Below, piece after piece: positions 7,105-53,643 of a stretch of DNA of 64,000 nt. Source of the stretch: Niastella sp. (GTDB taxonomy: Bacteria; Bacteroidota; Bacteroidia; Chitinophagales; Chitinophagaceae). Position numbers and translations under genes: made by a program. Positions within the stretch are counted from its first letter, which is position 1; the number at the start of each line of letters is the position of its first letter. Under the pieces are notes generated by a model. That model saw nothing but the letters and a program-made list of their open reading frames with translations, had not been told where the DNA came from and ran no database searches. The stretch spans positions 38,395 to 102,394 of the forward strand of contig JAGIBF010000006.1 in NCBI GenBank assembly GCA_017744515.1, read 5' to 3'.

Positions 7105-7821
7105 ATGAAAACACTTTCCGAAACCTGGTTTGCCGATGGTTATATTGACTTCGAATTGAAGAAGTACACCCTCCTGGCCTATCTACAAGAGGTAAACAAG
7201 TATTTTGACGCCAACAAGCTCTATCCCCAATTGGCAGACGTTATTTTCCACTACAACAACTTAGTGGCCTTCCGCGAAAACAAGAAGTATCTGCAAGAGC
7301 AGTTTCCCAAAACACTGACCGGTGTACAAATGGAAAAACTGCAACTACTATACGAGCAGATCATTGAAGACGATGAAATGATGCAGGAGCTGGAAGACAT
7401 TATCAACTATGCTACCAACAAGATCAAAAAAGCCATCAGCAATGGAACAGAGATATATGAGTTTGTAGAAAACAAGCTCATTATATTCCCGGTGGGTTTG
7501 ATACCATTAGATGTGCGGGAAGGCTATTTCTTCCTGAGCGAAGGCACCCACCGCAACACCCGCGTATACCAATACCGCCTGAGCTTTTTCGAAAAGCACG
7601 ATGAAAAATACAGGGCCATCAAAACCGAATATATAGACAGGTGGGAAAGAAATACAGTGAACACCTACGAAAACATCAAGGCCGAGCTGATACGTAAGAA
7701 AAGAGACCTGCCCAACCCGGCAGTATACTCCATCGAAACAGAACTCACCTTCCCGGTCGATGAAACACTCTTACCCATCGCCAAGCGCAGCCTGGTAAGA
7801 TATATCTCCACTGCCGCGTAA
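7105..7821 (+). CDS. Conserved hypothetical protein
   Basis: 238-aa ORF with coherent soluble composition and an A-rich initiation region. Confidence 0.75.
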   Translation: MKTLSETWFADGYIDFELKKYTLLAYLQEVNKYFDANKLYPQLADVIFHYNNLVAFRENKKYLQEQFPKTLTGVQMEKLQLLYEQIIEDDEMMQELEDIINYATNKIKKAISNGTEIYEFVENKLIIFPVGLIPLDVREGYFFLSEGTHRNTRVYQYRLSFFEKHDEKYRAIKTEYIDRWERNTVNTYENIKAELIRKKRDLPNPAVYSIETELTFPVDETLLPIAKRSLVRYISTAA

Positions 7822-7840
7822 GAGAAACATATTTTGGAGT

Positions 7841-7875
7841 TTGTCATTTCGAATGAAACTCCCCCTCTCTGTCAT
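7841..7875 (+). repeat. REP-like arm, left part (GTCATTTCGAA, spacer, then a second GTCAT cut by the IS)
   Basis: GTCATTTCGAA 7843-7853; TGTCAT 7870-7875 continues as TTCGAAC at 9101 once the IS is removed. Confidence 0.85.
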
Positions 7876-7891
7876 CCTATGTTTGCTGGGA

Positions 7892-8090
7892 AGTAAATAA
7901 GAGGAGAACTTAGTTGATTATTAAAAGGTCATACAGAAGCGGAGAAAAGAATCAGATTAAGTTTTGTCATTGGTCATAAAAGACCGTTCGAAATGCTAAT
8001 GCTTTTCTCCCTTACTGCCAAATCCTGAACAGTTCATTAGGCGTTGTGAGCCTGTATGTAGGATTGATAGGAAAAAGCAGTAATACTTCT
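7892..8090 (+). ncRNA. Predicted IS110 bridge RNA (target-binding and donor-binding loops); ends approximate
   Basis: Stem GGAGAAAAG/CTTTTCTCC encloses TTTTGTCAT (7962-7970) and TTCGAAATG (7987-7995). Stem TTACTGC/GCAGTAA encloses ACAGTTCAT (8029-8037) and TAGGAT (8059-8064). Confidence 0.85.
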
Positions 8091-8111
8091 GCGTGATATA
8101 AAACTAAGTAG

Positions 8112-9089
8112 ATGGCAAAAGTAAAAAACTTTGCAGGATTTGATGTAAGTAAAAAGTTCTTTGACGTTTGTTTGAGTGTTGATGGTTTAATGTCGTCAAC
8201 TCGTTTTAGTAATGATATACAGGGTTTTAAGGCTTTATTCAGTCAGTTGGCTGTGGATACGCATTGTGTAATGGAGGCTACTGGTCCTTATTACCTGCAA
8301 CTGGCTTTTTTTCTTCATGAGCATGGTCTGAAGGTGAGTGTTGTCAACCCTTTAATTATCCGTCGCTTCTGTCAGATGCGTTTGAGTCGTGCCAAGACTG
8401 ACAAAGCGGATGCCAGGCTGATAGTGGCCTATGGGATTAAAGAGGAACCAGCTGTTTGGGAGCCGCCGCAACAATATGTGATTGAGCTACAACAATTACA
8501 GGCATTGTGTGATCAGTTTCAAAAGCATTACCGGGCTTTAAGTAACCAGTTGGAGGCATTTACTGCGAGTGGCTTACTGTGCAAAAGGCTTGAACGACAA
8601 CTTCTGAAGGAATTGGCGCATATAGAAGAACAGATAGCCGGAATAGATAATCAGATGCATGAATTAATAACCGTGCATCACGGAGAAATGATGAATAATC
8701 TGACGAGTATTCCGGGATTAGGCAAGAAAACTGCGCTGGCCTTAATCGTGTTAAGTGGTGGCTTTAAGAAGTTCAACAATTATAAGCAGTTGAGTGCTTA
8801 TGTGGGTTTAAGTCCGCGGATTTATGAGTCTGGAACAAGTGTAAAAGGTCGTTCCCGGATTTGCAAAATGGGCATGAGTCGGATACGTGCTTTATTATAT
8901 GTATGCTCCTGGAGCGCAAAACGATGTAATGCGGCCTGTAAAGAGCTCTACGACCGGTTAGTGTTGAATGGGAAAAATAAGCGACTGGCGCTGATCGCCG
9001 TGGCTAATAAGCTGATAAAACAAGCATTTACCATAGCTACCACCAATGTTGCGTATGATAAGAATTACAGGAAAAACATTTGTTTATAA
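8112..9089 (+). CDS. IS110-family DEDD recombinase (transposase), apparently intact
   Basis: GFDVSK, VMEATG, KTDKADA (DEDD), SIPGLG, GLSP..YESG (catalytic Ser region). Confidence 0.95.
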   Translation: MAKVKNFAGFDVSKKFFDVCLSVDGLMSSTRFSNDIQGFKALFSQLAVDTHCVMEATGPYYLQLAFFLHEHGLKVSVVNPLIIRRFCQMRLSRAKTDKADARLIVAYGIKEEPAVWEPPQQYVIELQQLQALCDQFQKHYRALSNQLEAFTASGLLCKRLERQLLKELAHIEEQIAGIDNQMHELITVHHGEMMNNLTSIPGLGKKTALALIVLSGGFKKFNNYKQLSAYVGLSPRIYESGTSVKGRSRICKMGMSRIRALLYVCSWSAKRCNAACKELYDRLVLNGKNKRLALIAVANKLIKQAFTIATTNVAYDKNYRKNICL

Positions 9090-9100
9090 ACACAGTTCAT

Positions 9101-9164
9101 TTCGAACCCTGCCATACGCACCCGCCTCCACAACCAGTGTACAGGGTGAGAAATCTGCTATCGA
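9101..9164 (+). repeat. REP-like arm, continuation (TTCGAAC...GTGAGAAATCTGCTATCGA)
   Basis: 9146-9159 is a perfect inverted repeat of 9642-9655; 9146-9164 is the reverse complement of 41196-41214. Confidence 0.85.
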
Positions 9165-9276
9165 GTGATTAGCAGCTGAGCCCAAACCGGGAAAGAAAAT
9201 AAAGACCAGTTGTGCTATTTAATATCCGTACTTCAATCTAAGGCTGAAGATTTCCCGTATACTGGGTAAATCTAAT

Positions 9277-9621
9277 ATGCAAGTAAACCAGACCTATTTT
9301 GTATACATACTAACGAACCCCAATAAAACGGTACTCTATATTGGCGTTACCAATAATCTTGCTCAACGTATCATAGAACATTATATCAACCGCGGAAGCT
9401 CATCCACTTTTGCAGGCAGGCATTTTTGTTACCAATTATTATACTATGAAACATTTGGACAAATACGGAGTGCTATAGCAAGGGAAACAGAGATCAAAAA
9501 ATGGAACCGGAATAAAAAAGAGGCACTGATCAAAACAATGAATCCGGATTGGGTTTTCCTGAATAAAGAGTTGTTTGGCCAGCGGCCACCTGAAGAGGCG
9601 ATTTCACATAGAGGCAGTTAA
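9277..9621 (+). CDS. Small stand-alone GIY-YIG nuclease
   Basis: YFVYIL, LYIGVT, conserved Arg (QRIIEH) and Glu (ARETEIKKW); 114 aa. Confidence 0.92.
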   Translation: MQVNQTYFVYILTNPNKTVLYIGVTNNLAQRIIEHYINRGSSSTFAGRHFCYQLLYYETFGQIRSAIARETEIKKWNRNKKEALIKTMNPDWVFLNKELFGQRPPEEAISHRGS

Positions 9622-9641
9622 TAAAATCCGTTGTATTCGCA

Positions 9642-9766
9642 AGCAGATTTCTCACTGCGCCGCAGCTGCGTAATAGTCATAGTTCCCAATGGCTCCGTTC
9701 GAAATGACATTTAAGGGAGCAGTGTTACTATTTGTTCGAAATGGCAAAGAAGGAGGAGTTTCGTTT
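9642..9766 (-). repeat. REP-like right arm, inverted relative to the left arm
   Basis: AGCAGATTTCTCAC 9642-9655, GTTCGAAATGACA 9697-9709, GTTCGAAATGGC 9734-9745, then a purine-rich spacer resembling the reverse complement of 7852-7870. Confidence 0.85.
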
Positions 9767-9883
9767 ACAATAATACAAAAGTGGAAAACAAATGCAGTCA
9801 GCATTAAGGAGTATTTAACCATCCGGCTATAGCACCATCCTAAAAAGCGAACTATATTTAGGGAAGCGAAAACCCACCCGCAT

Positions 9884-10489
9884 ATGAAAAAGCTCTGCTT
9901 CCTGTTTGTGACAATGTTGTTTTGCCACCTGTCACTCCTGGCCCAGGTGAACGTAGGCGTGAAAGCCGGTATCAATATCAACAGGATCAAGTATAAAAAG
10001 GCGGACCCTGAAATGGCGAGCATTGGATTTCAGGCAGGTCTGCTGGCAAAGATTCACGTTACGGATGGTTTCTTCGTCCGCCCGGAAGTGCAATACTCCC
10101 GTAAAGGATACCGGTTTCCTGCCATTGGGTCTGATGGACAGGGGAATGTAAGGTATCATTATGTGGCTGTACCTATACTGGCCGGCATCCCCGTCGGCAG
10201 CAAATTCAGCTTCCTCATAGGACCGGAATTCGGCTACCTGGTGAAAGCCAATTCGAAATTCTCCACCAGTACCCGCGATGTGACGCAGAATTTCGAGCGT
10301 TTCGACTGGGGGCTTGACCTGGGCGGCGCCTGGCAGATCACTTCTTCCCTCGGTCTGGAAGTGCGCTATAATTATGGTTTCTACGGCCTGCTCAAAGGCG
10401 TCACCACTGGCCAGAATGGCGAAATTACCGGCAGCAACCGTGACGGCGCCAACCGGGTGATACAGGCTGGATTGTTTTATATGTTGTAA
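9884..10489 (+). CDS. Outer-membrane beta-barrel (porin-family/PorT-like) protein
   Basis: Signal peptide, GVKAGIN start, PEVQYSRKG, alternating beta pattern, aromatic C-terminus. Confidence 0.85.
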   Translation: MKKLCFLFVTMLFCHLSLLAQVNVGVKAGININRIKYKKADPEMASIGFQAGLLAKIHVTDGFFVRPEVQYSRKGYRFPAIGSDGQGNVRYHYVAVPILAGIPVGSKFSFLIGPEFGYLVKANSKFSTSTRDVTQNFERFDWGLDLGGAWQITSSLGLEVRYNYGFYGLLKGVTTGQNGEITGSNRDGANRVIQAGLFYML

Positions 10490-31744: not shown

Positions 31745-33412
31745 CTATGCCTTTTTTGAGGCCTTCATTTTCTTGCACCAAAACCACAAGCCCACTGCTA
31801 TCATCAACACTTGCATGAATGCCCAGAACATGGTGCTGATGTCGCGGGTGAGCTTACCACCCCAATCCATGAAGTGGTGTTTATGAAAGAGTGCGAAGCT
31901 GTACCCTTCTGCCAGGTCTTTATCGTTCACCACAGTAGCCAACTGACCAGTGCTCGTTTCCACATAGTATCTCTCCTTACTGTTTTCTGCATAGCCTACT
32001 TTCCAAACGGGTAAACGTTTATTCACAAAGCCGTATTCATCCACAAATTTGGTGATGACTGTTGTGTTCAGGATCTTATCGGCCTGACTTCCGCTGAACA
32101 GGGTGCCCAGGTAACGTGCGTATTGTTCTTCGCCACCTGCAAGCAACTTATAATCGGTTGCAGATATATACAATGTATTAGGCGGTGGCACACTCATGCT
32201 CTTCATCAGATCCTTACCGCCTGAAGGGGTTGATTTCCCTGCCGCAGGTTTAGTGCTTTTATGAAATACCTGCCAGTATTCGCCGCTTTCCATTTTGACC
32301 AGTGATACGTTCGTGATCCGTTTATCTGAACCAACTGTGGTGTAGAGTTTTTGCCAATCGATCGAAGCCTGCGGGGCAGTAAAACGATTATCAACAGTGG
32401 TAATACCGGGGGCATCGGCGTTTAACTTTTCAAAAGCATGGAAAGCGCCGCTGAAGGTGAACAGCAAGGTAAAGAGAGAAGCAGTGAGTGAAGTGTAGCG
32501 GTGTATGCGCCGGGCACGAACCGTTGAGTTGCCATTTGCCTTCCTGGTCTTCGTGGTAAAGAACATGTACAATCCCATGATGGTGGTAAACATCGCCATC
32601 AACATGATCAATATCTCGATGACATGTTTTCCTTTGCCCATGAAGTCCAGCCATCCCAGGGTATGAAACCAGGAAAAGAAGGTATCGAAAGCAGCGCGCC
32701 GGTTGTCTACAGCGAAAGCAAACCGGTCCTTCGCGGTCTCTACATAAATGCGAACGCCGTCTGCCCGATCGAAACTTACTTTATAAGCAGGCAGGTAACG
32801 GTTCACATATTTGTATTCGCTGTCGAATTGTTCGATGAAATCTACGGTAGTAACCTTTGCTCCTTTGGTGACGTTCATGATCGTAAACATCGTGTTGGTA
32901 CAGCAATCATGGTCACCGCTCAATGCTTCTGCCGCAGGGGTTGTACTGCCATCGGGCAAAGGTTCCGGCTTAAGAGATGCCAGCATCTTACCGGCTTTGG
33001 CATCTGCTGCAGCCTGCTCGTCTCCTTCAAGGAATTGTTTGGCCAGGTAACGGGCATACAGTTGATCGCCATCGGGCAATAGCTTACCATTATCGGCGCT
33101 GTAGTATTTCAATACAGCATTGCCTGGCAGTTTTACCTGGTAAAACAAATTGCCGTTCATAGCTACCAATCTGAACCGGCTGAATGAATCCACTTTATTC
33201 TTTTGCAGCGCCTGTGCCAGTGATACTTTGATCTTTGCTGTGTCAATGACAGGTGCTGTTAACTTTTGTGTAGCGACCTGTGGACGAACGTTGGTCATCA
33301 GCGGATGCATAAAGCCACTCATTGCCCACAGCAATACCGGCAATGCTATAATGAGGCTTACTATACGGTGCAACCGGTACATGTTCCGGCGGATATATTT
33401 TCGGAGGGACAT
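31745..33412 (-). CDS. PepSY-associated TM-helix protein
   Basis: RLHRIVSL..AMSG, FSWFHTLGW, ALFHKHHF; lies directly downstream of the TonB receptor. Confidence 0.85.
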   Translation of the reverse strand: MSLRKYIRRNMYRLHRIVSLIIALPVLLWAMSGFMHPLMTNVRPQVATQKLTAPVIDTAKIKVSLAQALQKNKVDSFSRFRLVAMNGNLFYQVKLPGNAVLKYYSADNGKLLPDGDQLYARYLAKQFLEGDEQAAADAKAGKMLASLKPEPLPDGSTTPAAEALSGDHDCCTNTMFTIMNVTKGAKVTTVDFIEQFDSEYKYVNRYLPAYKVSFDRADGVRIYVETAKDRFAFAVDNRRAAFDTFFSWFHTLGWLDFMGKGKHVIEILIMLMAMFTTIMGLYMFFTTKTRKANGNSTVRARRIHRYTSLTASLFTLLFTFSGAFHAFEKLNADAPGITTVDNRFTAPQASIDWQKLYTTVGSDKRITNVSLVKMESGEYWQVFHKSTKPAAGKSTPSGGKDLMKSMSVPPPNTLYISATDYKLLAGGEEQYARYLGTLFSGSQADKILNTTVITKFVDEYGFVNKRLPVWKVGYAENSKERYYVETSTGQLATVVNDKDLAEGYSFALFHKHHFMDWGGKLTRDISTMFWAFMQVLMIAVGLWFWCKKMKASKKA

Positions 33413-41195: not shown

Positions 41196-41268
41196 TCGAT
41201 AGCAGATTTCTCACTCCGCTATCGCTCCGTTCGAAATGACAAAAAAGGGAGAGTTCAGTTCGAAGTGG
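41196..41268 (-). repeat. Solo copy of the GTCATTTCGAAC...GTGAGAAATCTGCT REP family
   Basis: TCGATAGCAGATTTCTCAC-14 nt-GTTCGAAATGACAAAAAAGGGAGAGTTCAGTTCGAAG. Confidence 0.9.
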
Positions 41269-53598: not shown

Positions 53599-53643
53599 CA
53601 GGGTGAGCCATCCTTTGACCCTTCGACAAGCTCAGGGTGACAA
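53599..53643. repeat. REP family 2 copy preceded by a partial CAGGGTGAGCC unit
   Basis: CAGGGTGAGCC 53599-53609; CCCTTCGACAAGCTCAGGGTGACAA 53619-53643. Confidence 0.8.

Follow-up and report, generated by a model that had tools for sequence, protein, structure and literature searches.

Small GIY-YIG nucleases paired with a dispersed hairpin repeat have been described in Neisseria meningitidis, where SsnA, a 94-aa protein of CDD family cd10448, binds the NTS hairpin repeat CGTCATTCCCGCGMAVGCGGGAATCYRG solely as single-stranded DNA and cuts it a few nucleotides upstream (5′) of the hairpin, while duplex DNA and RNA are not cut (Chenal et al., Nat Commun 2025, PMC11893778). Cleavage is abolished by mutation of Y6, Y17 or E64 and depends most on the three bases upstream of the stem, with binding depending most on the C after the stem (PMC11893778). 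In Neisseria, SsnA activity lowers recombination of repeat-bearing DNA, and deletion of ssnA increased transformation by NTS-bearing DNA about five-fold (PMC11893778). Across phyla, the genes of Ssn homologs are bordered by Ssn-related motifs (SRMs) of their own, on both sides in 42% and on at least one side in 71% of cases, and the authors likened the NTS-ssnA-NTS arrangement to an insertion sequence (IS), drew the analogy with RAYT (REP-associated tyrosine transposase) genes, repetitive extragenic palindromic (REP) sequences and BIMEs, and raised a domestication hypothesis (PMC11893778). Our literature search found no follow-up paper on Ssn, and none linking GIY-YIG proteins to REP, RAYT or REPIN under those names. 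Here we describe a locus from a Niastella genome, in a stretch of 64,000 nt (the window, C139:38395-102394), where a structured repeat, in two inverted copies, encloses a 114-aa GIY-YIG gene (9277-9621). We consider it very probable (about 0.85) that this locus is a member of the Ssn/SRM system, with an ssnA-like single-domain gene flanked by its cognate hairpin repeats. The preliminary description of this DNA knew of no characterised system of the type, but Ssn/SRM is that system, layout and RAYT analogy included (PMC11893778), and the locus is filed as a Bacteroidota example with a long-loop repeat dialect and not as a new kind of system.

The host genome comprises 7.63 Mb in 172 contigs with 47% G+C, the host genus is one of Bacteroidota with large genomes, and the nearest named relatives of the ssnA-like gene (9277..9621, + strand; PF01541 E = 1e-14) belong to the Chitinophagaceae. 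The left SRM, of class 1 and long-loop form (9101..9170, sense on the + strand; TTCGAAC-CCTG...CAGG-GTGAGAAATCTGCTATCGA; nhmmer match C139:47491-47558), is split at TGTCAT|TTCGAAC by an IS110-family insertion sequence (7876..9100, + strand, transposase 8112-9089), and its DNA fold combines an ATTTC/GAAAT and an ACCCTG/CAGGGT stem. Removal of the IS110 joins GTCAT (7871-7875) to TTCGAAC (9101-9107), which is followed by the 38-nt centre of the left arm (9108-9145). The GTCAT, the first five bases of the left SRM, closes an outer 5′ half-site region (7836..7875, + strand), in which the half-site TGTCATTTCGAA (7842-7853, with GTCATTTCGAA at 7843-7853) is embedded in a small GGAGTTT...GAAACTCC hairpin and followed by a CT-rich spacer; the 31-nt unit of this region is also present at seven other genomic loci. 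On the right side of the gene, the class-1 SRM has the 71-nt form (9637..9709, sense on the - strand; TGTCATTTCGAACGGAGCC...GCAGTGAGAAATCTGCTTGCGA, with GTTCGAAATGACA at 9697-9709; nhmmer match C139:48031-48101, E = 1.2e-16) and shares inverted pairs with the left arm, while the outer half-site (9734..9765, - strand; GCCATTTCGAAC on the - strand plus a GGAGGAGTTTC spacer, with GTTCGAAATGGC at 9734-9745) mirrors 7840-7866 in inverted pairs.

Without the IS, the left side reads TGTCATTTCGAA-spacer-TGTCATTTCGAAC-38 nt-GTGAGAAATCTGCT and the right side mirrors it, with GTGAGAAATCTGCT (9146-9159) and AGCAGATTTCTCAC (9642-9655) forming the core of a 19-nt inverted pair of 89% identity. The preliminary description had listed these elements and called the 14-bp inner repeat perfect; the mirror of the two 14-mers is indeed perfect, and all of the listed sequences were found at their positions. 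It had further pointed to an AGATTT..AAATCT hairpin just before the ATG, which is present here and only partly kept in the 67%-identical ortholog of a congener (AGATTTTTCGTATACTGGATAAACTT). An Rfam scan of positions 7700-10000 (E ≤ 1) returned nothing but a chance-level RT-6 match within the transposase gene, and the repeat is thus not a curated RNA family.

In the protein, PF01541 spans residues 7-81 of the 114 aa and no further domain was found, placing it in the size class of single-domain GIY-YIG proteins (about 90-150 aa). Alignment of 13 homologs showed conservation of Y10, Y21, R31, H35, E70 and N89, with Y10, Y21 and E70 being invariant or at least 90% conserved. Proteobacterial homologs from Neisseria, Sinorhizobium and Sphingobium were retrieved by tblastn of plasmid records, and the Neisseria gonorrhoeae record, evidently chromosomal though among the plasmid records searched, carries its homolog as a 94-aa open reading frame (ORF) amid six canonical NTS repeats. 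The window protein matches this ORF over residues 5-86 with 40% identity (BLASTP E = 1e-17), the family profile aligns with it at a probability of 99.8% in hhalign, and residues Y6, Y17 and E64 of SsnA align with Y10, Y21 and E70 of the window protein. With the N. gonorrhoeae ORF as proxy, the match lies within the published thresholds for Ssn homologs (blastp E < 1e-10, at least 75% coverage). All NCBIfam matches of the window protein were sub-threshold, TIGR01453 scoring 23 bits against a cut-off of 56, and a GIY-YIG homing endonuclease of the I-TevI type was rejected on this score and on the single 114-aa domain. The only solved structures matched were those of UPF0213 / YhbQ proteins (PDB 1zg2, 1ywl; E = 5e-8 and 1e-5), which have the same fold and size as the window protein and give a weaker match than SsnA. 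We know of no repeat association for UPF0213 / YhbQ proteins.

Iterated nhmmer searches identified 111 class-1 copies of the repeat in the genome, or one per about 69 kb, 97 of them located outside open frames of ≥150 aa. Three forms with invariant ends were recognised (43-44 nt, 68 nt and 71-72 nt), which share the sense strand TGTC-ATTTC-GA-[loop]-GA-GAAAT-CTGCTATCGAAGCAAAnG with a CT tag after the stem, a sharp 3′ boundary and a fuzzy, CT-rich 5′ boundary. The extra ACCCTG/CAGGGT stem of the 68-nt form is replaced in other copies by the covarying GCCCTG/CAGGGC. Either flank of the gene carries the repeat as an oriented hairpin of the SRM type (5′ GTC tag, stem and C after the stem, about 20-50 nt), with the long forms reaching 62-66 nt. 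Several of the short copies are identical among themselves, and copies cluster locally, for example on contigs C119, C133 and C144. One to four additional 5′ half-sites with a period of 27-29 nt precede 46 of the 111 elements, in the region where characterised Ssn enzymes cut, and these arrays may be footprints of cleavage and repair. Half-site tandem arrays directly 5′ of complete SRMs were also observed in two other genomes, with a period of about 11 nt in G008 (L007) and about 23 nt in G016 (L012).

Comparison with the published system showed the same general architecture. In both, a GIY-YIG protein with one domain, about 100 aa and conserved catalytic Y, Y and E residues is encoded by a gene flanked by its own hairpin repeat; the repeat is present in about a hundred mostly intergenic copies and is oriented, with a 5′ GTC tag before the stem and a C immediately behind it, and each nuclease has one repeat dialect. 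The Neisseria NTS has the form CGTC-ATTCCCGCG-loop-CGCGGGAAT-CYRG (PMC11893778), against TGTC-ATTTC-GA-loop-GA-GAAAT-CTGC at our locus, and lacks the GA..GA feature seen in the Bacteroidota SRMs. Besides the Bacteroidota host, the 5-bp stem followed by GA..GA and the loops of 7-45 nt, the locus differs from the published examples in its upstream half-site arrays and in the presence of two orthogonal nuclease/repeat pairs in one genome.

To place the locus in its wider family, 80 homolog loci across Bacteroidota were collected by searching with a five-sequence alignment, and the flanks of 77 were scored by the best inverted match obtained when 250 bp of upstream sequence were compared with 250 bp of downstream sequence, with 394 neighbouring ORFs as controls. 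The median flank score was 13 for the homologs and 8 for the neighbouring ORFs (Mann-Whitney p = 8e-23), and scores of ≥14 were obtained for 47% of the homolog loci and 3% of the control ORFs; a test of homologs against control genes for flanking arms had been proposed in the preliminary description. When the homolog loci were scanned for GTCAT-NNN ... N′N′N′-ATC, 371 sites were detected compared to 9 in the reversed sequence used as control, with 174 located within 250 bp of the gene; repeats were present on both sides at 56% and on at least one side at 71% of the loci. A looser hairpin scan (GTC plus any 5 nt ... complement plus C) was dropped as non-specific (548 versus 522 in the control).

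The common form across loci is TGTC-[5-bp stem]-GA-loop-GA-[stem′]-CT, with GA..GA immediately within the 5-bp stem in about 80% of the Bacteroidota SRMs, where it could form a tandem G.A mismatch, and with stems that covary between species (TTC/GAA, CCC/GGG, GCC/GGC, CCT/AGG and others). The 67%-identical ortholog of congener G003 has the same repeat on its flanks, and for homologs in other families of this order the flanking repeats are dialects of their own, such as TGTCATTCTGAGCGAAGCGAAGAATCT. A generic SRM pattern gave 58 matches in the present genome versus 8 in the control, and 295 versus 3, 170 versus 5 and 102 versus 10 in other ssn-bearing genomes. The association of nuclease and repeat is therefore real, phylum-wide and specific. 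That two copies of an abundant intergenic repeat came to lie round a short gene by chance can practically be dismissed: the repeats are common (111 copies) and locally clustered, but a copy within about 150 bp on both sides is expected at only about 5e-6 per gene (estimated from copy density), the pattern recurs at a second GIY-YIG gene of this genome on contig C87, at the G003 ortholog and at most of the 80 loci from other genera, and the comparison with control ORFs given above rules out chance juxtaposition.

The arrangement also resembles that of RAYT genes with their REP, REPIN and BIME repeats, in that a single-copy nuclease gene is flanked by hairpin repeats with class-specific pairing of enzyme and repeat, the repeats act as single-stranded hairpins and clusters of alternating orientation occur. 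The RAYT/REP-like layout proposed in the preliminary description holds in this sense, the gene being single-copy, flanked by repeats on either side and paired with one repeat class. The locus nevertheless does not belong to the RAYT/REP systems, as the flanked gene encodes a GIY-YIG protein and not an HUH Y1 tyrosine transposase; hydrolysis takes the place of covalent transfer by the HUH tyrosine, the tag is TGTC and not GTAG, and mobilisation by the enzyme is only hypothetical for Ssn. The genome does contain a RAYT-like Y1 (HUH) gene, a 196-aa Y1_Tnp-like gene (C119:5593-6183) located 136 bp from one degenerate repeat in a repeat-rich contig, and the repeats might be ordinary REPs moved by this transposase, with the GIY-YIG gene merely lying among them. 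We regard this as very improbable, and rejected the Y1 gene as driver, since all seven congeners, repeat-free ones included, retain it at 73-80% identity, and the roughly 1.7 kb to either side of it contain no SRM in the six remaining genomes. In the present genome (G000) the repeat adjoins it on one side only, and the GIY-YIG association holds across the phylum.

The orientation of the arms was determined with a GA-requiring hairpin scan (342 sites versus 7 in the control), and among 43 two-sided loci the nearest arms were +/- in 16, -/+ in 13 and direct in 14. The mirror layout is common and not obligatory, and it agrees less well with defined transposon ends than with alternating arrays of repeats. 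An IS or transposon with terminal inverted repeats was also rejected, there being one gene copy per class, variable arm orientation and no clear duplication. Two head-to-head SRM pairs without a gene were observed at C99:69893-70021 and C133:30258-30410; in each, 16-17 nt separate a left arm of the long-loop form from a right arm of the short or 71-nt form, the same arm types as round the ssn gene, and the pairs are either gene-less derivatives or potential target sites. Such pairs, together with the patchy distribution of the gene in the genus (2/7 genomes) and its location at a synteny break, would fit a selfish, homing-like invader of SRM clusters, in the manner of the IS110, for which the arms are the target and not the product. 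This appears improbable to us, as the gene is single-copy per class, the protein is a single domain of 114 aa without the additional DNA-binding domain that GIY-YIG homing enzymes have, and the characterised homologs do not cut duplex DNA, as homing requires.

The second nuclease gene (C87:32856-33143) is the only other genomic match to the window protein, with 35% identity, and the only other stand-alone GIY-YIG gene of the genome, and it has the class-2 SRM TGTCACCCTGAGCTTGTCGAAGGGTC on both flanks. Each repeat class has one nuclease gene copy. A class-2 SRM is also located in the window at 53617..53642 (- strand; C139:92011-92036). In the C87 region (32822-33210), no stop codon separates the ssn-like gene from hutU (urocanate hydratase); the reading frame passes through the downstream SRM, and the resulting open frame is 701 aa long. 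A structure-aware hairpin scan of the genome detected 233 sites versus 11 in the reversed control, including 108 with ATTTC stems and about 115 of the second class (ACCCT, AGGCT and related stems).

Across the genus, strict class-2 matches numbered 82 in the present genome and 0-6 in six congeners, none of which shows an ortholog of the C87 gene; the matches in the genus at E ≤ 1e-8 were two distant ones in G003. A close class-1 gene was present in 4 of 41 relatives, all four with an excess of generic-pattern matches over control of ≥26, while an excess of ≥20 was seen in 3 of the 37 relatives without such a gene. Both repeat classes are greatly expanded only in the presence of the cognate gene, with G006 and G029 as exceptions; the relation of repeat number to nuclease presence, which the preliminary description had proposed to examine, held in all four class-1 genomes and for class 2, and failed in these two genomes. 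At E ≤ 1e-5 neither genome yielded an ssn homolog, although true SRM-type hairpins were observed in both (the class-1 long-loop form in G006, and TGTCATTGCGAG...GCAATCT in G029); the hairpins may have outlived a lost gene, or the gene is perhaps diverged or unassembled.

This distribution bears on whether the nuclease creates or spreads its repeats, alongside a restriction-like role or in its place, as a RAYT-like REP system with a hydrolytic GIY-YIG enzyme. Cleavage beside the hairpin on single-stranded DNA would then start the copying of the unit to new sites via host repair or replication. The expansion of repeats with the cognate gene points in this direction, as do the identical short copies, which suggest recent spread, and the 5′ half-site arrays located exactly at the expected place of cleavage, here and in G008 and G016; the hypothesis was also raised by the authors of the Neisseria study (PMC11893778). 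Yet joint acquisition or joint loss explains the co-occurrence equally well, the repeats persist without the gene in the two genomes named above, and the orientation of the arms round the gene is variable.

Further evidence comes from the solo class-1 SRM of the window, a short 44-nt form in an intergenic region (41196..41239, - strand), which corresponds to the nuclease-less copy of the arm that the preliminary description had placed at 41196. The SRM lies within about 107 nt that are missing at the orthologous intergenic site of G002, G003 and G005, where the empty site consists of CTCACTATTT plus 6 nt plus GTTAAAATAG, and repeats have thus been gained in this lineage, which again favours spread. 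No clear target-site duplication was seen in this empty-site comparison. An empty site in relatives had also been proposed for the whole nuclease cassette, and none was found among six congeners. In these six, the gene for the 238-aa protein upstream of the cassette is followed by a gene whose G000 counterpart lies at the end of contig C8 (C8:22438-23983), and the SRM/IS110/ssn block (window 7822 onward) sits either at a synteny break or at an assembly gap. A different repeat was observed just downstream of the ortholog of the 238-aa gene in G005, G003 and G002 (L108, L109 and L113), consisting of runs of 8-9-nt units (AAGTCGGAAAGTCAGTAAAG... and its complement) flanking a central palindrome.

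The immediate neighbours of the nuclease gene differ between G000 and G003, which speaks for spread of the unit, but the G003 copy lies within 14 kb of the ortholog of a gene located 31 kb from the cassette here, and a local rearrangement could account for this as well as transposition could. Being hydrolytic and forming no covalent intermediate with DNA, GIY-YIG enzymes are incapable of HUH-style strand transfer, and the chemistry offers no mechanism for it. Neither an insertion mechanism nor a target-site duplication could be defined, and the element has a fuzzy 5′ boundary. On balance we hold it rather unlikely that the nuclease creates or spreads the repeats; the more specific proposal that the Ssn nuclease is required for the proliferation of its own repeats, making it a REP-type intragenomic replicator with the half-site arrays as footprints of cleavage and repair, we put forward equally tentatively.

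The IS110 element in the left SRM (domains PF01548 and PF02371) parasitises the repeat and does not belong to the nuclease/repeat system. In the assembly, all ends of this IS110 that could be detected adjoin a class-1 repeat at TGTCAT|TTCGAAC, the other ends being located at contig ends (C9, C100, C119 and C128), and at the right junction of the insertion the GTC tag of the left repeat is replaced by TTC. Two short exact matches lie in the 5′ non-coding region of the IS: the 12-mer CCGTTCGAAATG (7984-7995) recurs in the right SRM at 9695-9706, and ACAGTTCATT (8029-8038) has the same letters as the right end of the IS (9092-9101). Such repeat-matching and end-matching 10-12-mers are what a bridge-RNA-guided IS110 aimed at the repeat would look like. 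The IS110-family element IS621 inserts into REPs in E. coli, and the Nf phages use Piv/IS110-type integration into the dRS3 repeats of Neisseria. Likewise, ISPpu9 of the IS110 family inserts into REPs in Pseudomonas putida (PMC12288879). The window IS resembles these REP- and dRS3/NTS-targeting elements in occupying one fixed SRM position in every copy, and differs from the REP-targeting ones in that its target is an SRM and not a RAYT-type REP.

Several observations weigh against assignment of the locus to Ssn/SRM. The published SRM string HGTCWYN(0-2)YYVSBRHN(0-5)WNVSBRGN(0-2)RNCYNB had no matches in positions 7700-10000 and 22 in the whole genome, while the same script found all six NTS in the Neisseria locus; the string misses our locus because the local loops (20-45 nt) exceed its N(0-5) gap. 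The protein compared is the N. gonorrhoeae ortholog, a stand-in for the assayed N. meningitidis SsnA, and Bacteroidota are unmentioned in the main text of the Neisseria study (PMC11893778). The true repeats of G006 and G029 again occur in genomes with no detectable gene, and the cellular role may differ, as natural transformation is not established for the lineage.

By analogy with SsnA, the protein would recognise the repeat only when the sense strand (5′-TGTC-ATTTC-GA...GA-GAAAT-CT-3′) is single-stranded and folded, and would then hydrolyse this strand a few nucleotides 5′ of the TGTC tag, with double-stranded DNA and RNA not being substrates. A nickase acting on duplex or cruciform DNA, as the preliminary description had envisaged, does not agree with homologs that cut single-stranded DNA 5′ of the hairpin and have no activity on double-stranded DNA (PMC11893778). 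The approximately 110 class-1 copies would mark sites where single-stranded DNA gets cut, possibly incoming transforming or conjugating DNA, or intermediates of replication and repair.

The abundant TGTC...GA...GA...CT hairpins of Chitinophagaceae and other Bacteroidota can now be annotated as Ssn-related motifs, and the small 'GIY-YIG nuclease family protein' genes beside such hairpins as ssnA-like. Beyond the published description, the SRM string misses dialects with long loops, two separate nuclease/repeat pairs are possible in one genome, and IS110 elements can be aimed at SRMs. Each new nuclease/motif pair is a candidate site-specific cutter of single-stranded DNA for laboratory use, and the two orthogonal pairs of this genome, together with congeners lacking both, offer a natural test bed for distinguishing whether such nucleases spread their repeats or merely cut them.

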